Assembly: GCA_947628135.1 (NCBI GenBank)
Contig: CANQYT010000001.1
Location: forward strand, 129,285 to 193,284
DNA from: an uncultured Clostridia bacterium
GTDB lineage: Bacteria; Bacillota; Clostridia; Christensenellales; CAG-314
Direction: 5' to 3'
DNA: 64,000 bases
Every line of letters starts with the position of its first letter. Position 1 is the stretch's first letter. Shown here in pieces: positions 33,195 through 61,412 of this stretch. Made by a program: the position numbers and the translations under genes. The notes below the pieces were generated by a model that made no database searches, was not told where the DNA came from, and saw only the letters and a program-made list of their open reading frames with translations.

Positions 33195-33653
33195 ATGACT
33201 AAACTTATTTCCACCAACAAAAAAGCCTATCGCGACTACACCGTAGTCGAAACGTTGGAGTGCGGAGTCAACCTCATCGGTTGCGAAGTCAAATCTTTGC
33301 GCAAAGGCGAAGTCAACCTCGCCGATTCTTGGTGTCGCATAACCAACGGCACGCTGATTCTCGTCAACTGCCACATAAAAAACTACGACAAAGGCAGTTA
33401 CAGCAACGTAGAGTCCCGCAGGGACAGGCGTTTGCTTGCGCACAAACGGGAAGTTATGCGCCTGCTCGGCAAGGTAAAGGAAAAGGGCTATTCCGTCGTA
33501 CCCACCAAGTTGTATTTCAAGGACAGCCTCGTCAAGGTGGAAGTCGCCCTCGTCAAAGGCAAGCGCAACTACGACAAAAAGGAAGCCATTCGCAACAAGG
33601 ACGTGGAACGCGACGTTCAGCGAGTATTAAAAGACTATTCGGAATCACGTTAG
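33195..33653 (+). CDS. smpB: SsrA-binding protein
   Basis: 152 aa. NKKAYRDYTVVETLECGVNLIGCEVKSLR...LLAHKRE. Confidence 0.95.
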   Translation: MTKLISTNKKAYRDYTVVETLECGVNLIGCEVKSLRKGEVNLADSWCRITNGTLILVNCHIKNYDKGSYSNVESRRDRRLLAHKREVMRLLGKVKEKGYSVVPTKLYFKDSLVKVEVALVKGKRNYDKKEAIRNKDVERDVQRVLKDYSESR

Positions 33654-33655
33654 AT

Positions 33656-33968
33656 TTTCCGACCACACGTGCGGCGGTCGATTGCTTGCTACTGCGTAAC
33701 GCTTGCGCAATCGACGGTTAAATAGACAACATTTACAAAACCGACTTCCTCGTCCGAAGTCGGTTTCTTTTTATACAGTGAGTAACATTATCCTGTGCGC
33801 TAACGCGCCGCCGCAGTCGGACTTGGGAGTGGTGCAGGAAACCTGCACGGTCGGATAAACCTTTCGCCGGGGTCTCCCATACCCCCGGCATCCCCGGGGA
33901 GGACGCAAAGCTTCGGTACACGCCCGAACTTTGCGGAGTTTGGTTGAAACTTTCCGACCACACGTGCG
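33656..33968. repeat. 18-nt perfect direct repeats (TTTCCGACCACACGTGCG) bracketing a 277-bp segment
   Basis: Copies at 33656-33673 and 33951-33968 (period 295 bp). The enclosed segment holds a terminator hairpin and, at 33863-33899 on the minus strand, a 37-nt GC-rich motif also present at 41309-41345. Confidence 0.8.
33741..33772 (+). terminator. rho-independent terminator downstream of smpB
   Basis: Hairpin CCGACTTC-ctcgtcc-GAAGTCGG followed by TTTCTTTTT. Confidence 0.75.
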
Positions 33969-34039
33969 ACAAGTCGTATCGGGTATTCGGTGAAAAAAGG
34001 CTTCACTTCGTGTGCCGCACCTAACAGGGTGCGGCACAC

Positions 34040-35095
34040 TTGTTGCAGATTATTCACATCAACTTGCAACTCAAAAAAGACCTTCCCCGTCACGGGTAAG
34101 CCGTTACGGGGAAGGGGGACTGCGCTCCGCGCGGTGGAAGAGGGATACTCGAAATCAACAATATCCATATTTTTCTCCTTACTCTCTACAACTTTGTCCG
34201 CAGGAAACTTATATTGTATCGCAATCGACCTTATTAACCTTCCCCGTCACGGGTAAGCCGTTACGGGGAAGGTGTCGCCCGACGGGCGACGGAAGAGGGG
34301 TTCTTTGAAACCAACTTACTTCTTTGCCCCCCCCCCTCTTTCGTCTGCTACGCAGCCACCTTCCCCGAAAGTCGCGCTTGCGCTGTTGACTGTCGGGGAA
34401 GGTCTGTTGCTAAACTGCACTTATGACTGCAAATACAGTGTGTTTTTGAGACGTTGTTTTTGTTATCGGTAAAATTGACAAAACAAGTGTAATTTGTTTT
34501 TTCTCTCACTCTGTCTACAACAACTTACATTAAACACTTTCCAACTTGTCTATATTCTTTTTCTCTCACCCCGTCCGCAGGATACCCACATCAACTCGCA
34601 ACTCAAAAAAAACCGTCCCCGTCAATTACGCACCGCGGAATTTACGGGGAAGGTGTCGCCCGACGGGCGACGGAAGAGGGTTTTATTGAAACCAACTTTT
34701 TTGCCCCCTCTTTCGTCTGCTACGCAGCCACCTTCCCCGAAAGTCGCGCTTGCGCTGTTGACTGTCGGGGAAGGTCTGTTGCCGAATTGCACTTATGACT
34801 GTAAATACAAGTGTGTTTTTGAGACGTTGTTTTTGTTATCAGTTGAATATACAAAACGGTGTAATTTGTTTTCTCTCACCCCGTCCGCAGGAAACCCACA
34901 TCAACTCGCAACTCAAAAAAAACCGTCCCCGTCAATTACGCATAGCGGAATTTACGGGGACGGGGGACTGCGCTCCGCGCGGTGGAAGAGGGCTTTTCCG
35001 AACCCAACTGTTTTTATCTCCAAGTCGGCGCGGCGCGCCCCGCAGGGGGCGGTAAGCCCAATGTCCAAAGTCGGGACGCAAAAACAAGTTTTTAC
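34040..35095 (+). repeat. modular hairpin-repeat array A (4 units)
   Basis: Heads GTCCGCAGGA(A/T)AC at 34196, 34573 and 34883, plus a head-less first unit. The hairpin CC(G/T)TCCCCGT...ACGGGGA(A/C)GG occurs 4 times. Two units carry the long second hairpin CCTTCCCCGAAAGTCGCGCTTGCGCTGTTGACTGTCGGGGAAGG. No plausible CDS. Confidence 0.9.
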
Positions 35096-35100
35096 ACTAT

Positions 35101-35616
35101 TTATAGAGTATTCGCCTCAACATTTGACATAGAGCCATTTTGTTTGCGCATAGTTTTCACCGCAACGGCGGACAGCGCCAGCACAGTTGCGATCAGCGCA
35201 ATGTTCACGGCGGGTACTACCGCAAACAAAGCCGAAATCTCAACCAACAGGAAACTGTACACGCTGTAAACAGTCACAAGCGCAGCGGAAATGCAAACCA
35301 CCACAAGGCACGCAACTATTGCGCCGTACTTCTTGCCGTTGCAAAGCAGTACTATCCACACGACGGCAAGCGCAATGGCGGGTGGCAACGCCGTGAAGAA
35401 CCACAACACAACGATAACCATCGCGCCCAAAACCTGTCCCAACGCCTCGCCCAGTTCCTCCGAGGTCGTTGTTTCCGTCTCGCTTGGGGCGGTCTCGGTT
35501 TGCGAGCCGTTGCTCGCCGATATGAGCGCAGGCGTAATCACAAACGAAGCCAACAGCCACACGATGAGTATCGGCAGCAAAATTTTCAAAGCCGTTACAG
35601 AACGTAAGTTTTTCAT
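35101..35616 (-). CDS. hypothetical integral membrane protein
   Basis: 171 aa. Signal/TM at the N-terminus, a T/E-rich linker, then three or four TM helices. Confidence 0.55.
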   Translation of the reverse strand: MKNLRSVTALKILLPILIVWLLASFVITPALISASNGSQTETAPSETETTTSEELGEALGQVLGAMVIVVLWFFTALPPAIALAVVWIVLLCNGKKYGAIVACLVVVCISAALVTVYSVYSFLLVEISALFAVVPAVNIALIATVLALSAVAVKTMRKQNGSMSNVEANTL

Positions 35617-35699
35617 ATCTACCTCCGCAAAAATGTTGTAACGTTGCCGAGTTTAGCACTTTTTATGTGCAAAGTCAACACCTTTCGTCAAAATATTTT

Positions 35700-36353
35700 T
35701 TACTGCTTGTCTTGCTCGTCCCTTTCGCTTTGCGTTTCGCCGTCCCTTTCGGCAATCATTTTGCGCAGTTTGCTTGCGTGGTAGTAGCAGTTGCAGCGGC
35801 TCAGTCCCAACTGCTCGCTCACCTGCGCAATGGTCAACTTGTCCGCAAAGTACAGCGCAAACACCTGTACAAACTGTTCTGAGTAGCGGCTTTGCGGACG
35901 TCCGAAACGCACCCCGCGCAGTTTTGCGGAGGCAATGCCCTCTTTCTGCCGTTGGCGTATGTTTTGCCGTTCGTTTTCCGCCACAAAGGACAGCACCTGC
36001 AACACCACGTCGGAAATAAACTTTCCCATCAGGTTGTCCGTTCTTTCCCTTGTGTCCAACACAGGCATATCCAGCACCGCAATGTCCGCGCCTATTTCCC
36101 GAGTAATCGCTTTCCATTCTTCTATTATCGCGTCGTAATTTCTTCCCAACCTGTCAATGGACTTTATCACCAGCAAATCGTCCTTTTTCAGCACGGCAAG
36201 CAGTCGTGCGTACTGTTCCCGTTCGAAGTCTTTTCCGCTTTGCTTGTCCACAAAGACGTTTTGTTCGTCAATTCCCATCTGCGCAAATGCGTCCAACTGC
36301 CTCGCCACACACTGATCCTGCGAGGAGACCCTCGCGTAAGCATACATCGTCAT
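35700..36353 (-). CDS. serine recombinase, resolvase/invertase (Hin/Gin/Tn3-resolvase) type
   Basis: 217 aa. N-terminal catalytic domain YAYARVSSQDQ (catalytic Ser), LLVIKSIDRLGRN, ENERQNIRQRQKEGI, and a C-terminal HTH (LTIAQVSEQLGLSRCNCYY). Confidence 0.9.
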   Translation of the reverse strand: MTMYAYARVSSQDQCVARQLDAFAQMGIDEQNVFVDKQSGKDFEREQYARLLAVLKKDDLLVIKSIDRLGRNYDAIIEEWKAITREIGADIAVLDMPVLDTRERTDNLMGKFISDVVLQVLSFVAENERQNIRQRQKEGIASAKLRGVRFGRPQSRYSEQFVQVFALYFADKLTIAQVSEQLGLSRCNCYYHASKLRKMIAERDGETQSERDEQDKQ

Positions 36354-36494
36354 AATTGTACTTTTATCCTCCTTGATTTTGTTTTGACGAATTTCTCGCC
36401 GCTTTCGGCAAGTTGATATCTATTTTAGCCAAATTTTCCGAGATTTCAAACCGTGTTGTCGAAAAAAACGAAAAATTGAAAAAAAATTTCAAAA

Positions 36495-36514
36495 AAAAGT
36501 AGGATTTAACTAAC
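36495..36514. repeat. left inverted repeat of the candidate invertible promoter segment
   Basis: AAAAGTAGGATTTAACTAAC. The reverse complement of 36668-36687 is AAAAGTAGGATTTTCCTAAC. That is 18/20 matching, with a 13-bp perfect core. Confidence 0.6.
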
Positions 36515-36556
36515 TTTGACGAAACGTCGTATTTTTTTGCTCGTTTCAACGTCATA

Positions 36557-36577
36557 CCTGCCGTGAGGCGGGTTTTT
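36557..36577 (+). terminator. small plus-strand terminator inside the candidate invertible segment
   Basis: Hairpin CCTGCC-gtga-GGCGGG followed by TTTTT. The reverse strand has no T run after the hairpin, so it is unidirectional. Confidence 0.5.
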
Positions 36578-36630
36578 GCGGGCTTTTCGCCGCGCTTTGT
36601 GCCGTTGCAAAGCGAGTTTGCAATACATCT

Positions 36631-36659
36631 GTTATACACCAATCGATTTTCTTTGTCAA
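36631..36659 (-). promoter_or_regulatory. near-consensus sigma-A promoter on the minus strand inside the candidate invertible segment
   Basis: Reverse strand reads TTGACA (36659-36654), a 17-nt spacer, then TATAAC (36636-36631). It currently fires toward the recombinase gene and away from the 36725 operon. Confidence 0.6.
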
Positions 36660-36667
36660 TGATTTTT

Positions 36668-36687
36668 GTTAGGAAAATCCTACTTTT
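36668..36687. repeat. right inverted repeat of the candidate invertible promoter segment
   Basis: GTTAGGAAAATCCTACTTTT, the partner of 36495-36514. It ends 37 nt before the ATG at 36725. Confidence 0.6.
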
Positions 36688-36724
36688 ACTAACACTCGGA
36701 CGGCACGTAGAAAAGGGGGTAAAT

Positions 36725-38302
36725 ATGCGTGATATAACGCTGACAAACGGCGGCAAACGCCGTGCAATATTGGCAGTTTTTGTTGCGGTAGCGTTGCTCG
36801 GCGCGGCTTTTGCGTTGTTTTTTGCGCCTGCGGCAAATGCCGCCCGCAGTGATACGGATTGGGTAACTGTGGGCGAAACTGTGCTTGCCCGCTCCTCCGA
36901 CGGCACAACCAAGTTCAACAAAAATTCGCTGGAAGCGCTGTACGGCTATCTCACCGCAGAGGGGACGTACTCGTCCGTTGCCGCTGCGGCACAGTCGGGC
37001 AAAACTTCCGCCGATTTCCGCACCCTCAACGGCGGAAAAAACGTTTCCGTCTATTTCGGCGGTTTCGAGTGGGACGTAGTGTACCTCACCACGGCGCAGA
37101 ACGGCGGTGGCAACACCAATAAAGGCGACGTCATTCTCGACTTGTGGCGTTCGGTGGACGATAATATGACTTATGCCAAAGACGCTGTTATACACTTCAA
37201 TGCCCCTATGTCTAATACAACCGTTAGGTATCCATCGATGTTGTATTCTGTGTATTATTCGCGCGTGGTGGGGTTAAATATCGGCGGGGCTTATAATTCC
37301 ACTAGTAGAGGGAGCTCTTTGGATTATGTAAATCAAGACGCCAATCATCAGTACGCCCGCTTTACTATGACCGAAGATCAGGGCGTATCGGGCAGTTTGA
37401 CGCAGTTCATTGCCACGCCCGTGCAGGTAGGCTATCAAGAACACGAGTGGGACGAAGCAACGTCCAACGCAATTAATTCGAACAAATATTATTGCCCCAA
37501 CGACGCCTACGGAGTTCCGGAAGTCGGTGGACAATGGATACGTAATGAGTTTAATTTACTTGAACGAGGTGATGATGAAGAACGTCCGGCAGTGGCAAAA
37601 TACGACGCTTGGAAGAACGACTATCTTTGGTTGGCTTCTATTTCTGAAACGGGTTTTGAGGATGACGTTGGCAACGGTATTTGGGATACTGATGTCTCTC
37701 TTCGGAGTTCTATTGAACTAAAAAGTTCTCGTCTGTCGACAAAAATAACTTTGTTACGCTCTCACAAAGGCGATACTCGTAGTGGGGGTTATTTTAGTAC
37801 ACTCGACGAGTCTGGTAACCAAGGAACTTTGACTGGTACCAGCAACGGTGTCGTTCGCCCCGCATTGCACCTCAATCTCACCCAAGCCAACGACAATTCG
37901 GAAGAGCCGTCGTTGTCCTACACGTTTGAATTGCCCGACTCGGTGGAATTTGCCGTCCAAGACGGGGTTGCAACTGCAACTATCAACGTCACGGCGAGCG
38001 ACATATACGTCCCCGCGGGCAAAACTCTCACGCTCTATGTAAAAGACAACGAAGGTCTACTCGAAAACACATTTTACCTTTGGAACGGCGGTACTAAGAA
38101 GGAGTACACCCTTTCCGCCTCGGGAGGGAACGCCGTCGAAAACGGTGCATTCGACCCCCTCTACGGCAAGATGATTTGGCAGTTGTCGAACGACAAAACT
38201 ATTGCTTCCGAAACGTTTACTATCACGCTTACCCTTGTCTCGTCTCCCACACGTGCGGGCACTTGGCAGGACGCGCTGACATTCACCGCTGTGGTCACTT
38301 AG
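36725..38302 (+). CDS. secreted large protein of unknown function (distant DUF6273-like features)
   Basis: Met 55 of ORF 36563..38302, preceded by AAAAGGGGG. Signal peptide RRAILAVFVAVALLGAAFALFFAPAANAA. Motifs FGGFEWDVVYL, DYLWLASISE and ITLLRS loosely echo the 13031 protein. Confidence 0.6.
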   Translation: MRDITLTNGGKRRAILAVFVAVALLGAAFALFFAPAANAARSDTDWVTVGETVLARSSDGTTKFNKNSLEALYGYLTAEGTYSSVAAAAQSGKTSADFRTLNGGKNVSVYFGGFEWDVVYLTTAQNGGGNTNKGDVILDLWRSVDDNMTYAKDAVIHFNAPMSNTTVRYPSMLYSVYYSRVVGLNIGGAYNSTSRGSSLDYVNQDANHQYARFTMTEDQGVSGSLTQFIATPVQVGYQEHEWDEATSNAINSNKYYCPNDAYGVPEVGGQWIRNEFNLLERGDDEERPAVAKYDAWKNDYLWLASISETGFEDDVGNGIWDTDVSLRSSIELKSSRLSTKITLLRSHKGDTRSGGYFSTLDESGNQGTLTGTSNGVVRPALHLNLTQANDNSEEPSLSYTFELPDSVEFAVQDGVATATINVTASDIYVPAGKTLTLYVKDNEGLLENTFYLWNGGTKKEYTLSASGGNAVENGAFDPLYGKMIWQLSNDKTIASETFTITLTLVSSPTRAGTWQDALTFTAVVT

Positions 38303-38346
38303 CGCCGCGCTGAGTTTTTGGGAATTGCAACAAGGAGACAAACACA

Positions 38347-38874
38347 ATGAACTTCGATTCTAAACGTGACAAAAAACTTCTGCTGACGGTAATTGCGTTG
38401 TTGCTGTTGGCTATGCTAACCGATCTACTTCTGTGCGTCTTGATGCTGGGCTACAAGCCGAGCGGAGACGTCACTTCCTCCTCCGGTGGCGGCGGCATTG
38501 GGTTCGACCCCGACGTTTCGGACGAACGTCCGGGCACGGTTACGCAAACGCAAAGCGTATCCGTGGCGGGTTTCTCGAAACTTACAATGCCGCCCGACGC
38601 CGACACAATTGCAATAGATTTGTACAACCCCGAGGAAAACTTCGGCTTGTACTATCTGACGTTTGAGTTGCGCTTGCGCCTTGACAACGGCGAATACGAA
38701 ACGCTGTACAAGTCCGGCTTGGTGGGCGCAGGCAAACACATCTATCAGATAACCCTTTCCCACGCGCTTAGCGCGGGCGAGTACTCGGGAGAGTTGTTTA
38801 TTCAGCCCTACCGTATGTCCGATATGTCCCCCACAAACACCGTGACGGGCAACCTGACGATAATAGTTAAGTGA
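38347..38874 (+). CDS. membrane-anchored extracellular protein, unknown function
   Basis: 175 aa. N-terminal TM (LLLTVIALLLLAMLTDLLLCVLML), a G/S linker, then a beta-rich domain. Confidence 0.55.
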   Translation: MNFDSKRDKKLLLTVIALLLLAMLTDLLLCVLMLGYKPSGDVTSSSGGGGIGFDPDVSDERPGTVTQTQSVSVAGFSKLTMPPDADTIAIDLYNPEENFGLYYLTFELRLRLDNGEYETLYKSGLVGAGKHIYQITLSHALSAGEYSGELFIQPYRMSDMSPTNTVTGNLTIIVK

Positions 38875-38925
38875 TGAATACGAGTAGGTCTCGTGTTTAT
38901 AAAAAAATATGGAGGTAACAAAACA

Positions 38926-39462
38926 ATGACAAAGACAATGACAAAGACCGCTTTGATAGTTTTCGCGGCAGTGTTGGTGCTGGCTGCGGTGTGCGTTGCA
39001 TTCGCTTGCACGGGCACGGCAAATGCGGCTGGACTCGCCAGCGATGGCAGTAACACCGGCTCGGTACAGGTGACGTACAGTGTTGAGGGCGGTTGGGCAG
39101 TAACAATTACCGACGGACCGATCAACCTTAAACCCGACCAAGAACAAACCATCACCGTAGAAGTGACCAAAGCCGTTTTGGGTGACGGTGAAACACTTTC
39201 GATAACGATCGAAAGCGAACACGACTACAAACTTGTACACGGCAGCGACTCTTTGGCTTACACCGTAAAGAAAGGCGCAACAACTTTCAGCTCAAGCGAA
39301 AAGACCGTTCTTGAAAATATCGACGGTACAACCGACCTTTCCGCAAACGGCAAAGCGGACTTGACAGTCAAACTTGAACAAGCCACCGCAAGCCAAGCCA
39401 AGTACGAAGGCGCGTACACCGACACGCTCAACTTCACGGTAAACACGAACGGCGGCGACTAA
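38926..39462 (+). CDS. secreted beta-rich protein, unknown function (pilin/WxL-like C-terminal strand)
   Basis: Met 12 of ORF 38893..39462, preceded by GGAGG. Signal peptide ending TANAAG. The C-terminus YEGAYTDTLNFTV resembles terminal strands of surface-fibre or WxL-type proteins. Resemblance only. Confidence 0.55.
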   Translation: MTKTMTKTALIVFAAVLVLAAVCVAFACTGTANAAGLASDGSNTGSVQVTYSVEGGWAVTITDGPINLKPDQEQTITVEVTKAVLGDGETLSITIESEHDYKLVHGSDSLAYTVKKGATTFSSSEKTVLENIDGTTDLSANGKADLTVKLEQATASQAKYEGAYTDTLNFTVNTNGGD

Positions 39463-39555
39463 CAAATTTCGTCTGGCGGTAGCGGTGCGCTTTGCCCGCT
39501 GCCGTCAAACGGCGTTGCGGTACAACAAATCAATGCAAAGGTAGGAGTAAAAATT

Positions 39556-40410
39556 ATGCTTGGCATTTTGGCAGATTCCATTTTCGGCACGCACGTAGAT
39601 TCCATTGCGGACATTCTGTTTTGGATAGTTTTGGCACAGGTGTTGCTTTTTGCCGCCGTGGAGGTGTGCATAGTAATTTTGTTACGCCGACCGAAAGACG
39701 CCGACCAATCGACCGAACAGCGCTCTCCCGAGCAGTCGCCCGCACCGAGCGGCGACGTTGCGGCGAGCGTTGCGGCGGAGCAGGTAGCCGCAGAGCAAGT
39801 AGTTTCGGAGCAGATTTCCGCAGAGCAGGTTGCGCCTCAGCAACAAGAGGCGGCGCAGCCCGCCCCCATCCTTGTTGACACGGCGGACTCTCACGAAGCG
39901 GGCGTCTTGCGCTACGACAAAAGTTTTGTGGCGCGTCTGATACAGTCGGACGATTGGCTCAAAGACCGTTACAACGTGTTGAAGAACGAACTTTTGAGTT
40001 ACAAAGGCGTAAAATGCCGTTACAATTGGAAGCGCGAAACTTTCAAAGCGGGCAAAAAGTACGTTGCTCGTCTGTTGTTCCGCGGCAAAACGCTGTGCGT
40101 TCTGTATCCGCTCGACCCCGAGACATATCCTGCCGACAGCGCATATCGCGCGGAAGCGGTAAACGCTCCCACGTTGACGGACACGCCGTCTATGTATCGC
40201 ATACGCAACGAAAAGCACTTCAAAGTGGCGCTTGCCCTGCTAAACGCGACGGCGAGGGAACTCGGGCTGACCCGTACCGCCCGTATCCCCGAGGACTACT
40301 ATATGCCCTACGAGGGTACTTTGCAACTCATAGAGCGCGGCTTGGTAAAGAGAAAAATCAAGTCCGCGAGCGAAGAGGCGATTTTCACGCGCAAAAACGG
40401 CGACGATTGA
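39556..40410 (+). CDS. membrane-anchored protein with an AEQV-repeat linker and a conserved C-terminal domain of unknown function
   Basis: 284 aa. N-terminal TM, a low-complexity repeat AAEQVAAEQVVSEQISAEQVAPQQQ, then a globular part (YDKSFVARLIQS...GKTLCVLYPLDP). Confidence 0.55.
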   Translation: MLGILADSIFGTHVDSIADILFWIVLAQVLLFAAVEVCIVILLRRPKDADQSTEQRSPEQSPAPSGDVAASVAAEQVAAEQVVSEQISAEQVAPQQQEAAQPAPILVDTADSHEAGVLRYDKSFVARLIQSDDWLKDRYNVLKNELLSYKGVKCRYNWKRETFKAGKKYVARLLFRGKTLCVLYPLDPETYPADSAYRAEAVNAPTLTDTPSMYRIRNEKHFKVALALLNATARELGLTRTARIPEDYYMPYEGTLQLIERGLVKRKIKSASEEAIFTRKNGDD

Positions 40411-40514: not shown

Positions 40515-41110
40515 TGTACGTGCCCTGTCCGCAGGAAACTCGCATTGTACTGCAACAAAACAACCTTCCCCGTCACGGGTAAGCCGTTACGGGGAAGGTG
40601 TCGCCCGACGGGCGACGGAAGAGGGGCTTTTCCGAAACCAACTCAATCCCTCGCCCCTCTTTCGTCTGCTACGCAGCCGCCTTCCCCGAAAGTCGCGCTT
40701 GCGCTGTTGACTGTCGGGGAAGGTCTGTTGCAGAATTGCACTTATGACTGTAAATACAGTATTGTTTTGAAACGTTATTTTTTTACTTTCTTTTTTAACT
40801 TTTCATCTATCAAATTTATTTACAATGTTCTGATTACCTTTTTTTGACCGCTTGTTTGTGTAGTTGTTTTTTATGTAAAAATTGTCTATATTATTTTTCT
40901 CCCACCCCGTCCGTAGGAAATTCACATCAAACAATTACAAACTTGTTCATTTTTTCTTTCACATTGTCCGCAGGAAACCCACATTGTATTGTGACAATAA
41001 AAACCGTCCCCGTCACGGGTAAGCCGTTACGGGGAAGGTGTCGCCCGACGGGCGACGGAAGAGGGGTTGTTGAACCCGACTGTTTTTATCTCCAAGTCGG
41101 CGCGGCGCGC
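40515..41110 (+). repeat. modular hairpin-repeat array B (3 units)
   Basis: Heads at 40527 (exact), 40909 (GTCCGTAGGAAA variant) and 40966 (exact). Unit 1 shares a 63-nt identical block and a 77/78 block with array A unit 1. Same orientation as array A. Confidence 0.9.
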
Positions 41111-41490
41111 CCCGCAGGGGTCGGTTGCAAGGAACGCCGTCAACCGAACCGACTTGCGTTTGGTCGGAACACACTTGCGTTTAATCGGAACATCATTACA
41201 AAATAAAATAGGAATTTGAGTGAGCGCAGGGCGTGTGGACACAACGCACAAGCGGAAAAAACTCAAATTCCGTCTGCAATCGGCGACAGGCGCGGCGATT
41301 GCAGCCCACCCCGGGGATGTCGGGGGTAGGGGAGACCCCGACGAAGTGTAAAAAAAAGAAGGCGCGTGCAGCGACTTCCTCAGTAGCCCGACCAAGTCGG
41401 CGCGGCGCGCCCCGTAGGGGTCGGTTGCAAGGAACGCCGTCAACCGAACCGACTTGCGTTTGGTCGGAATATACTTGCGTTTGGTCGGAA
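41092..41490 (+). repeat. 300-bp-period tandem duplication (about 1.3 copies) abutting the typA stop codon
   Basis: A ~99-nt block CCAAGTCGGCGCGGCGCGCCCCG(C/T)AGGGGTCGGTTGCAAGGAACGCCGTCAACCGAACCGACTTGCGTTTGGTCGGAA... starts at 41092 and again at 41392. It includes an internal 23-nt repeat, ACTTGCGTTT(GG/AA)TCGGAA. The 37-nt GC-rich motif sits between the copies at 41309-41345. Confidence 0.85.
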
Positions 41491-41491
41491 C

Positions 41492-59189: not shown

Positions 59190-61412
59190 TATTTTCTATT
59201 TTTCTTCCTGTCCGCAGGAAACATATATTGTATCGCAACCATTAAAACAACCGTCCCCGTCAATTACGCATAGCGGAATTTACGGGGAAGGGGGACTGCG
59301 CTCCGCGCGGTGGAAGAGGGGGTTTCCGAAATGATTTGTATACCCTTTAACAACCCGCTACGTCGGACGTGGTGGAAGAGGTTTTTTCCGAAACCCTATT
59401 ATTTTTCACACCGCGACATCGGAGATGGCTTTTCGAAATTTGTATATTCTCTGCCAACCCGCTACTTTCGACTTCCCTCTCACCCTGTCCGCAGGAAATA
59501 AATTTTGCACGGCGATGAAAGACCTTCCCCGTCACGTATGAATTTCTCCAATATGTATTTTTGCTATCACCTGTTCTAAATGTCTGTATTTTTTATTTCC
59601 CCTGTCCGCAGGAAACGTATATTGTATCGCAATCATTAAAACAACCGTCCCCGTCACGGGTAAGCCGTTACGGGGAAGGTGTCGCCCGACGGGCGACGGA
59701 AGAGGGTTTCTCCGAAATCAACTCACTCCCTTGCCCCTCTTTCGTCTGCTACGCAGCCACCTTCCCCGAAAGTCGCGCTTGCGCTGTTGACTGTCGGGGA
59801 AGGTCTGTTGCTCGATTGCACCTATGACCGTAAACACAGTGTGTCTTTGAGTAGTTGTTTTTGTTGTCAGTTAAATTCACCAAACGAGTTAGTTTGTTTT
59901 CTCACACTTTGTCCGTAGAAAATGCAAATCACCCGCAAAAAATTTGTATATTCCATATTTCATTTCTCTCCCTGTCCGCAGGAAATAAATTTTGCACGGC
60001 GATGAAAGACCGTCCCCGTCACGTGTGAATTTCTCCAATATGTATTTTTGCTATCACCTGTTCTCAATGTCTGTATTTTTTTTACCCCTGTCCGCAGGAA
60101 ACGTATATTGTATCGCAACTATTAAAACAACCGTCCCCGTCACGGGTAAGCCGTTACGGGGAAGGTGTCGCCCAACGGGCGACGGAAGAGGGTTTCTCCG
60201 AAACCAACTCATTCCTTTGCCCCCTCTTTCGTCTGCTACGCAGCCACCTTCCCCGAAAGTCGCGCTTGCGCTGTTGACTGTCGGGGAAGGTCTGTTGCTA
60301 AATTGCACTTATGACTGCAAATACAGTGTGTTTTTGAAACGTTGTTTTTTTGTTATCGGTAAAATACACAATGCAAGTGTAATTTGTTTTTTCTCACTCT
60401 GTCCGCAGGAAATAAATTATGCACGGCGATGAAAGACCGTCCCCGTCACGTGTGAATTTCTCCAATATGTATTTTTGCTATCACCTGTTCTCAATGTCTG
60501 TATTTTTTTTACCCCTGTCCGCAGGAAACGTATATTGTATCGCAACCATTAAAACGACCGTCCCCGTCACGGGTAAGCCGTTACGGGGAAGGTGTCGCCC
60601 AACGGGCGACGGAAGAGGGTTTGTTGAAATGATTTGTATACCCTTTAACAACCCGCTACATCGGACGTGGTGGAAGAGGGTTTTCCCGAAACTATTTTTA
60701 TTTTTCACACCGCGACATCGGAGAGGGCTTTTCGAAATTTGTATATTCTCTGCCAACCCGCTACTTTCGACTTCCCTCTCACCCTGTCCGCAGGAAATAA
60801 ATTTTGCACGGCGATGAAAGACCGTCCCCGTCACGGGTAAGCCGTTACGGGGAAGGTGTCGCCCAACGGGCGACGGAAGAGGGTTTCTCCGACGCCAACT
60901 CACTCTCTTGCACCCTCTTTCGTCTGCTACGCAGCCACCTTCCCCGAAAGTCGCGCTTGCGCTATTGACTGTCGGGGAAGGTCTGTTGCTCGATTGTACC
61001 TATGACAGTAAATAAAGTATGCTTTTGAAACGTTGTTTTTGTTATCAGTTAAATACACAAAGCAAGTGTAATTTGTTTTCTCTCCCTGTCCGTAGGAAAC
61101 GTATATTGTATCGCAACCATTAAAACAACCTTCCCCGTCACGGGTAAGCCGTTACGGGGACGGGGGACTGCGCTCCGCGCGGTGGAAGAGGGTTTGTTGA
61201 AATGATTTGTATACTCTTTAACAACCCGCTACATCGGACGTGGTGGAAGAGGGTTTTCCCGAAACCATTTTTATTTTTCACACCGCGACGTCGGAGAGGG
61301 CTTTTCGAAATTTGTATATTCTCTGCCAACCGCGCTGTCTAACGAGGTGGAAGAGGGGTTAATTGAAACCGACTCACTCCCTCGACCCCATCTTTTGTCT
61401 GTCGAAATGCCC
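59190..61412 (+). repeat. modular hairpin-repeat array C (9 units plus one degenerate head)
   Basis: Heads at 59210, 59487, 59604, 59974, 60090, 60401, 60517 and 60786 (exact GTCCGCAGGAAA), at 61088 (GTCCGTAGGAAA), and a degenerate one at 59911. Short (~115 nt) and long (~270-370 nt) units alternate. No RBS-led ORFs. Confidence 0.92.

Follow-up and report, generated by a model that had tools for sequence, protein, structure and literature searches.

A candidate promoter inverton between a small serine recombinase gene and an envelope-protein operon in an uncultured gut Clostridia genome

Is the short intergenic region that separates a small serine recombinase gene from a four-gene operon of predicted secreted or anchored proteins a genetic switch, on which a promoter is turned over by the recombinase? 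We examined this question for one locus in a 64-kb stretch of the genome of an uncultured Clostridia bacterium (contig CANQYT010000001.1), the whole of which is referred to below as the window. The original prediction, made from the letters of the window, had recognized here the layout of an invertible promoter, or inverton, with its operon in the OFF state. The elements of this layout, namely the recombinase, the repeat-bounded promoter segment and the promoter-less envelope operon, were all borne out by our analysis, and physical inversion was found in a homologous system; flipping at the window locus itself is argued from that homologue. We consider it quite probable that the locus is a functional promoter inverton served by the adjacent small serine invertase, our main reservation being that inversion was seen only in the homologue.

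The intergenic region contains an inverted repeat with arms AAAAGTAGGATTTAACTAAC (36495-36514) and GTTAGGAAAATCCTACTTTT (36668-36687), which match at 18 of 20 positions, share a 13-bp perfect core and are spaced 153 bp apart, exactly as first described. Using as criteria 20-nt arms, at most 2 mismatches, a 10-nt exact seed and a spacing of 30-440 bp, one repeat was counted in the window, whereas the count averaged 0.017 over 60 first-order Markov simulations of the window, and thus the repeat is not due to chance, even when its context is disregarded. This expectation is lower than the accompanying estimate of 0.1-0.3, which had been made for 13-bp perfect repeats within 300 bp. The arms were also drawn too short, since each sits within a 26-bp hix-like site (12-bp half-site, 2-bp centre, 12-bp half-site) that runs 6 bp past the arm. 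The limits of the two sites were set by analogy with the homologous sites of loci L045/L047, L010 and L062 (Table 2), and the half-site consensus across the recombinase family is GTTAGnAAAAGT. In serine invertases of the Hin/Gin type, it is the asymmetric centre that gives a site its polarity and by which two sites count as 'inverted'. The window centres, AG and CT, are asymmetric and mutual reverse complements; consequently, the two sites are in inverted orientation. Their outer half-sites are unequal, the one proximal to the recombinase being degenerate and the distal one consensus-like, an asymmetry that is common to every related locus. No further copies of the motif were found in the 64-kb window when up to 3 mismatches were allowed. 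In two contigs from other strains of the same species (L072 and L073), the region ~300 bp upstream of the recombinase that corresponds to window positions 36668-36693 has the distal inner half-site GATTTAACTAAC, not GATTTTCCTAAC, and the arms there are a perfect 20/20 match. The two substitutions are adjacent and bring the half-site closer to the other arm, a pattern that suggests either that the arms evolve in concert or that they are under selection.

By analogy with the difference between L045 and L047 described below, the DNA predicted to turn over extends from centre to centre (~36503-36679) and includes both inner half-sites. The minus-strand promoter that had been proposed, TTGACA, 17 nt, TATAAC, facing the recombinase, is present at 36659-36631 and is by far the best sigma-70-like match in the segment when both strands are scanned. 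A stricter consensus scan omits it because the last base of the -10 hexamer was required to be T. Conservation of the two hexamers, and of the two sites, extends to all 15 strain contigs. On the plus strand, a hairpin is present where a small terminator had been placed (36557-36577); it is terminator-like, but its U-tract is short. Substitutions in L003 and L004 fall in the loop and flank of this hairpin and leave the stem intact. The arm nearest the operon lies 37 nt from the ATG at 36725, and the full 26-bp distal site lies 31 nt from it, ribosome-binding site included. The earlier statement that this gap holds no -35/-10 pair was confirmed, as the consensus scan finds no plus-strand promoter-like site between 36506 and the ATG; likewise, the short stretches between the operon genes contain no promoter-like sites, so that transcripts of the operon must originate from the segment. 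The whole window had no Rfam match at gathering thresholds, and 36300-36760 had none at E <= 1 either; this rules out a riboswitch or other known RNA as an account of the intergenic region. The segment thus has the structural features by which surveys of the PhaseFinder type define a promoter inverton, being intergenic and flanked by inverted repeats, with a promoter inside and a gene start adjoining. Such surveys also look for both orientations in sequence data from one organism, a point on which the strain assemblies are described below. The features are collected in Table 1.

Table 1. Features of the locus, in window coordinates (aa, amino acids; ORF, open reading frame)
Feature	Position	Strand	Basis or detail
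Polytopic membrane protein gene, 171 aa	35101-35616	-	ORF; hydrophobic segments at residues 3-36 and 55-157
Small serine recombinase, predicted invertase, 217 aa	35700-36353	-	PF00239, PHROG 125
Fixed recombinase promoter, predicted	36422-36449	-	TTGAAA, 16 nt, TAAAAT; 10/12 consensus; outside the segment
Recombinase-proximal site	36489-36514	+	TCAAAAAAAAGT AG GATTTAACTAAC; outer half-site a degenerate A-run
Invertible-segment core, predicted	36515-36667	.	153 bp between arms
Second small hairpin with T-run	36517-36529	+	sequence scan
Hairpin, terminator-like	36556-36577	+	RNA fold: 7-bp G+C-rich stem 36556-36573, then UUUU G
Invertible promoter, predicted	36631-36659	-	TTGACA (36659-36654), 17 nt, TATAAC (36636-36631); faces recombinase
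Distal site	36668-36693	+	GTTAGGAAAATC CT ACTTTTACTAAC; outer half-site a perfect family-consensus match
Gene 1, 525 aa, secreted/anchored, putative adhesin	36725-38302	+	N-terminal hydrophobic segment, residues 11-40
Gene 2, 175 aa, N-terminal membrane anchor	38347-38874	+	ORF, hydrophobic segment
Gene 3, 189 aa, secreted	38893-39462	+	signal-like segment; likelier start ATG at 38926
Gene 4, 284 aa, membrane-anchored, conserved C-terminal domain	39556-40410	+	hydrophobic segment, homologue search

The recombinase belongs to a class that could act on such sites. Its length falls within the ~180-220 aa expected for small serine recombinases with a C-terminal helix-turn-helix; it matches the PF00239 Resolvase model (3.9e-26, 92 bits, cut-off 23) and, over its full length, the PHROG 125 'DNA invertase' (2e-46), and it aligns with Tn3 resolvase across residues 1-190, Pfam matches of helix-turn-helix type being below threshold. 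The catalytic N-terminal domain of the class is present, with the nucleophilic Ser10 and with R8, D67, R68 and R71; these residues, together with Y6 and D36, are invariant in an alignment with six relatives. Among solved structures the best similarity is to Sin/Bin3 (1.5e-23), followed by the Tn3 and gamma-delta resolvases (~1e-18) and only then by Gin (4e-11). The 'Hin' in the earlier label of 'Hin/resolvase-type' is therefore apt for the mechanism but not for the family, the enzyme being closer in sequence to the Sin and Tn3 resolvases than to Gin; enteric and phage invertases were ruled out as closest kin on the same scores. Membership of the Mpi family (NF009949), the best NCBIfam match, was ruled out at 52.8 bits against a cut-off of 272. 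Differences between strains and the window, counted as synonymous to non-synonymous, are for example 5:0, 9:3 and 7:4, and the recombinase is under purifying selection among strains. With an intact reading frame, all catalytic residues and this selection, the enzyme looks active.

The recombinase also has a predicted fixed promoter of its own outside the segment (Table 1), the sequence of which is unchanged in the strain contigs, so the invertible promoter is not needed for basal expression of the invertase. In the current orientation, the invertible promoter would add to recombinase transcription rather than be its sole source. No tRNA or tmRNA was found in the 64-kb window by ARAGORN or Rfam, and thus the recombinase is not located at a recognizable integration target.

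Does a recombinase of this family invert DNA? The homologue P0035, 61% identical to the window recombinase, was found in identical form at six places in independent assemblies (L045-L050). Its promoter (TTGCAA, 17 nt, TGcTACAAT) faces the recombinase in L045 and L046, and the gene for the antiterminator LoaP in L047, L048 and L050. When the two sets are compared, the 103 bp between the central dinucleotides are the exact reverse complement of each other, and the flanks are 100% identical between orientations over 500 bp on the left and 700 bp on the right. The two inner half-sites differ at one base (T vs G), and this base moves with the segment, which puts the exchange at the central AG/CT or immediately beside it, in agreement with the hix-like model. 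The sixth contig, L049, starts inside the segment and is listed with 8 further similar places; such a start would be the expected behavior of an assembler where a sample holds both orientations. These results show directly that the recombinase family inverts DNA. Moreover, since the orientation of the promoter differs between and within species, the repeats are not mere flanks of a fixed recombinase promoter. By analogy with this homologue, we infer that the window locus switches, and still does so, with a crossover predicted at the corresponding centres. The P0035 switch adjoins mobile-element-type genes downstream of the recombinase (DUF3854 and others), and L048 has a different gene set beyond the LoaP-side flank; the P0035 module may travel on mobile DNA.

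The same arrangement recurs beside other relatives (Table 2). A scan of species-representative genomes gave no recombinase relative above 70% identity and a scan of public metagenomes none above 62%, the window species being absent from both sets. The nearest recombinases (70% identical) come from uncultured rabbit-gut Clostridia, followed by Christensenellales-type metagenome-assembled genomes at ~60%. Relatives at 57-70% identity have the same 26-bp site architecture directly upstream, the site pair lying 73-135 bp upstream of the recombinase start codon in every one of the related loci, and five homologous loci follow the 12 + 2 + 12 inverted-site plan of the window. The centres in the family are always asymmetric and mutually reverse-complementary, being AG/CT, AA/TT or GT/AC. 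The sites are spaced 79-194 bp apart across the family, or ~105-220 bp from centre to centre (179 bp in the window, ~105 bp in P0035 and P0053). A strong promoter is present in each related segment, in most cases of the extended -10 type, and the gene that adjoins the distal site always starts close by and has an envelope- or surface-related function. The lipoproteins of L012 and L062 were recognized from lipoboxes read directly; the signal peptidase of L015 matches TIGR02228 (69 bits, cut-off 52), and the protein encoded after it, which matches no family, was taken to be TasA-like from the motif in its signal peptide alone; and the L045 antiterminator matches the LoaP model (138 bits, cut-off 125). 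Relatives of the P0070 type (59% identical) have no site pair upstream, so not every member of the wider clade adjoins an inverton.

Table 2. Loci of the recombinase family
Locus	Recombinase identity to window	Site centres	Distance between sites	Promoter orientation	Neighbor at distal site
Window	query	AG/CT	153 bp	faces recombinase	gene 1 (525 aa)
L010/L051	70%	AA/TT	192 bp between 21-bp arms	faces recombinase	gene 4 homologue
L012	61%	GT/AC	~90 bp	faces recombinase	lipoprotein
L015	59%	GT/AC	~156 bp	faces recombinase	SipW-type signal peptidase
L045-L050 (P0035)	61%	AG/CT	79 bp	both orientations	LoaP antiterminator
L062-L071 (P0053)	61%	GT/AC	78 bp	away from recombinase, 10/10	lipoprotein

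The recombinases of these loci vary at residues ~184-192, the putative recognition helix. The motif G-L-x-R-C-N is found in four recombinases with sites beginning GTTAG, a group that includes one distal outer half-site beginning GCTAG; KRDN and RVEN occur in two recombinases with (T)GTAG sites, and KSSN in the site-less P0070. In this small sample, the pairing of motif with site start may reflect protein-DNA co-variation.

In the mechanism that we propose for the window, the recombinase would bind the 26-bp sites at 36489-36514 and 36668-36693, cleave both centres, rotate and religate, and inversion would turn over ~179 bp carrying the sigma-70-type promoter. In the present orientation, transcription from the promoter would enter the recombinase gene and might continue into the gene for the 171-aa membrane protein, and the two plus-strand terminator-like hairpins would shield the operon, presumably silent now, from rightward transcription. 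After inversion, the promoter would be placed ~167 nt upstream of the ATG at 36725 (by arithmetic, assuming a transcription start ~7 nt past the -10) and would transcribe the four secreted or anchored, strain-hypervariable genes, with phase-variable surface expression as the outcome. The inverted form is predicted to contain the junction sequences ...TTTCAAAAAAAAGTAGGATTTTCCTAACAAAAATCATTGAC... and ...CGTTTCGTCAAAGTTAGTTAAATCCTACTTTTACTAACACTCGG....

How well does this proposal withstand the facts that weigh against it? Strains of the window species were collected by looking up exact matches to four proteins, namely the window recombinase and three variants of it, which yielded recombinases identical or >90% identical. 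The recombinase-facing orientation is shared by all of the 16 assemblies examined (the window with L001-L008 and L072-L078). This is consistent with the OFF orientation originally proposed, which presupposes the switching that we argue from the homologue. The opposite orientation, which had been named as something to look for in relatives, occurs in none of the 15 same-species contigs, but P0035 has both and P0053 has the promoter facing away. Two contigs break off in this region, L078 beginning 2 nt ahead of the distal site and L009 stopping 67 bp upstream of the recombinase; these breaks were rejected as evidence of inversion because strain single-nucleotide polymorphisms adjoin both. Uniform orientation is also odd from another angle: if the invertase is boosted by the promoter while it faces this way, OFF would be expected to be the less stable of the two states. 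In addition, the -10 hexamer ends in C instead of the highly conserved T, which is a real weakness, and the outer half-site proximal to the recombinase is a degenerate A-run. The single orientation, the imperfect hexamer and the degenerate half-site would all fit a locked or decaying inverton, in which inversion is absent or too rare, the promoter strengthens recombinase transcription and the operon is expressed otherwise or not at all. We regard such decay as unlikely. The strain contigs are consensus assemblies at 1.6-5.7x coverage, which show the majority orientation in each sample and cannot reveal a minority one, and the proximal outer half-site is equally degenerate in P0035, which inverts. 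Furthermore, decay sits poorly with the features of a working switch that the locus has kept: a recombinase under purifying selection, conserved promoter hexamers and sites, compatible centres with both inner half-sites intact, and the perfect arms of L072 and L073.

A more distant alternative is suggested by the ancestry of the enzyme. Resolvases of the Tn3 and gamma-delta type are autoregulatory and bind res sites located between divergently transcribed genes, and the window recombinase is closer in sequence to resolvases than to Gin. The two sites could accordingly be res-like operators or accessory sites at which the recombinase represses its own and the divergent promoter and no DNA is inverted. 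However, the window has two dimer-type sites, inverted and 153 bp apart, and not three directly arranged subsites; there is no transposase gene or cointegrate context near the locus; the homologous system P0035 physically inverts rather than resolves; and in the P0053 loci the promoter faces the other way. We find this reading highly improbable. As to a functionless repeat produced by chance, its A/T-richness is the one property that speaks for it; given ~0.017 such repeats expected per window, arms that are conserved across strains and a motif that is conserved beside homologous recombinases in other species, this explanation is effectively refuted, the cross-species conservation of the sites being decisive. 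A functional promoter inverton thus remains our preferred account of the locus.

What would such an inverton control? As had been claimed, the four genes at 36725-40410 encode proteins of the signal-peptide or transmembrane-anchored kind, each with exactly one N-terminal hydrophobic segment. None of the four matches a family above threshold in Pfam, NCBIfam, PHROG or PADLOC. Small serine recombinases have been linked to defence genes (PMC13552941). For the operon, however, there is no support for a role in defence or for a phage function, as PADLOC gave only a sub-threshold match for gene 4 (Aga1, 17 bits, E 8.9e-4) and PHROG gave no matches for the operon proteins. The AlphaFold (AF2) model of gene 1 has a moderate mean predicted local distance difference test score of 62.8, and residues 380-525 form a confident beta-sandwich. 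Its best Foldseek matches in the PDB are domains of chaperone-usher pilins (CfaE, PapGII, CfaB and CsuA/B at E 3e-4 to 4e-3, and with FimG included up to 1e-2). From this fold resemblance of a modelled domain, and from the SipW-type operon behind the L015 switch, the operon is probably an adhesin or fibre system. At the C terminus of gene 3, the motif YTDTLNFTV, read directly, resembles the C-terminal strand ALTFTAVV of gene 1, and BLASTP between the two proteins gives no significant similarity; on this short motif only, gene 3 is possibly a paralogous pilin-like or fibre subunit.

The operon varies strongly between strains. Gene 1 has only 10 detectable homologues among 5.8 billion proteins, and it is only 64% identical in strain L003, the recombinase of which equals that of the window. 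At the nucleotide level, the window and L003 are 97% identical over 35019-37148 and 83% identical over 37347-39339, the stretch in between (37149-37346) being unalignable. A sharp identity boundary is seen against both L003 and L004 inside gene 1 at ~37148, with ~83% identity from there onward through genes 2 and 3. This boundary suggests allele replacement or diversifying selection in the putatively switched operon, and hypervariability of this sort would be the pattern expected of surface antigens or phage receptors.

Gene 4 contains a C-terminal domain (~170 aa; LRYDKSF...WKRETFK...RGKTL...) that defines a family of at least 123 proteins in Clostridia and is fused in other proteins to Big_3 or L27A-like regions. 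In L010 (2726-3649) and L051 (1224-2042), no gene other than the one with this domain lies directly behind the homologous inverton. Nothing informative on the domain came from searching PDB sequences with a profile or from scanning 21 homologues against Pfam.

On the other side of the recombinase lies the co-directional gene for the 171-aa membrane protein, which has a promoter-like site of its own at 35678-35650, lies next to the recombinase in every strain contig that reaches far enough, and has no family match in Pfam, NCBIfam, PADLOC or PHROG. With the invertible promoter facing left, this gene may be a second output of the switch. Further left, a gene at 33195-33653 was recognized as smpB-like from its translated ORF alone, the window having no tmRNA, and the region after it (33700-35100) is filled by a family of dispersed repeats. 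These are all on the plus strand, in three intergenic clusters (34045-35053, 40526-41491 and 59649-61163), of which two flank the block of recombinase, inverton and operon. Their core, CCTTCCCCGTCACGGGTAAGCCGTTACGGGGAAGG-TGTCGCCCGACGGGCGACGG-AAGAGGGG, has two parts, of which 9 and 8 near-exact copies were counted against an expectation of 0. The predicted fold of one unit (-57.4 kcal/mol, z = -4.4) is far more stable than that of shuffled sequence, and there is no Rfam match.

How does the locus compare with known switches? Hin/hix, the flagellar switch of Salmonella, and the related Gin, Cin and Pin systems use 26-bp sites in which two imperfect inverted half-sites of 12 bp flank an asymmetric crossover centre of 2 bp; hin itself is carried on its ~1-kb invertible segment, and a Fis-bound enhancer is needed. 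This is the closest parallel in mechanism, with a small serine recombinase, 26-bp sites in inverted orientation and a promoter on the segment that would switch a surface structure. In contrast to hin, the window recombinase gene lies outside its segment, the segments of the family are too short for an internal enhancer, and the enzyme is less similar to Gin than to Sin/Bin3 or Tn3 resolvase. In layout the closest system is Mpi of Bacteroides fragilis, a serine invertase encoded outside short (~200 bp), promoter-only segments that control surface structures at many dispersed loci; the window enzyme falls in neither family. The antiterminator UpxY is found behind Mpi-controlled promoters (PMC11685472), and the first regulated gene of L045 encodes LoaP, likewise a NusG paralogue. 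The two differ in that the window invertase lies beside one site pair, with no other site in 64 kb, whereas Mpi sites are dispersed; in the half-site consensus GTTAGnAAAAGT, which is unlike that of Mpi; and in the host, Clostridia and not Bacteroides. The fimS switch of E. coli (FimB/FimE) and the cwpV and flgB switches of Clostridioides difficile (RecV) are inverted by tyrosine recombinases acting on 9-21 bp repeats. They resemble the window in having a short invertible promoter beside a recombinase gene and a fimbrial or surface operon under control, and for fimS the likeness extends to the pilin-like domain of gene 1, but a serine recombinase with hix-like sites implies a different chemistry.

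Many gut invertons have been catalogued in the PhaseFinder, DeepInverton and hCom2 surveys (PMC11892184, PMC11602134), and the window resembles them in its intergenic promoter segment, its inverted repeats, the adjoining surface genes and invertase, and its gut Firmicute host. According to the hCom2 survey, the position of an invertase gene near an inverton is generally one in which it cannot be driven by the inverton promoter (PMC11892184). In the window family, on the contrary, the invertase gene always faces the inverton, and one orientation reads into the invertase. We put forward, tentatively and with more doubt than belief, that the locus is a minimal, enhancer-independent two-way toggle in which one short promoter would alternately drive the adhesin or fibre operon and the invertase gene, so that invertase dosage and switching rate would depend on the state.

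No description of this recombinase clade or of its site consensus was found in the literature searched. To our knowledge, uncultured gut Clostridia and their Christensenellales relatives are essentially without experimental genetics. Promoter inversion has long been known as a means of phase variation, and thousands of such elements are catalogued; the locus would be a promoter inverton of a well-known kind, and its value is incremental. If our reading is true, it adds a documented serine-invertase promoter switch to the uncultured gut Clostridia, with defined 26-bp sites, a consensus and a likely crossover point that make read-level detection and in-vitro tests easy. If the toggle, too, were true, the family would possess a compact, self-contained serine-invertase switch, unlike the reported gut-inverton pattern of undriven invertases. 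For the bacterium itself, what may be switched is an adhesin- or fibre-like structure, and such structures matter for colonization, immune recognition and phage attachment.

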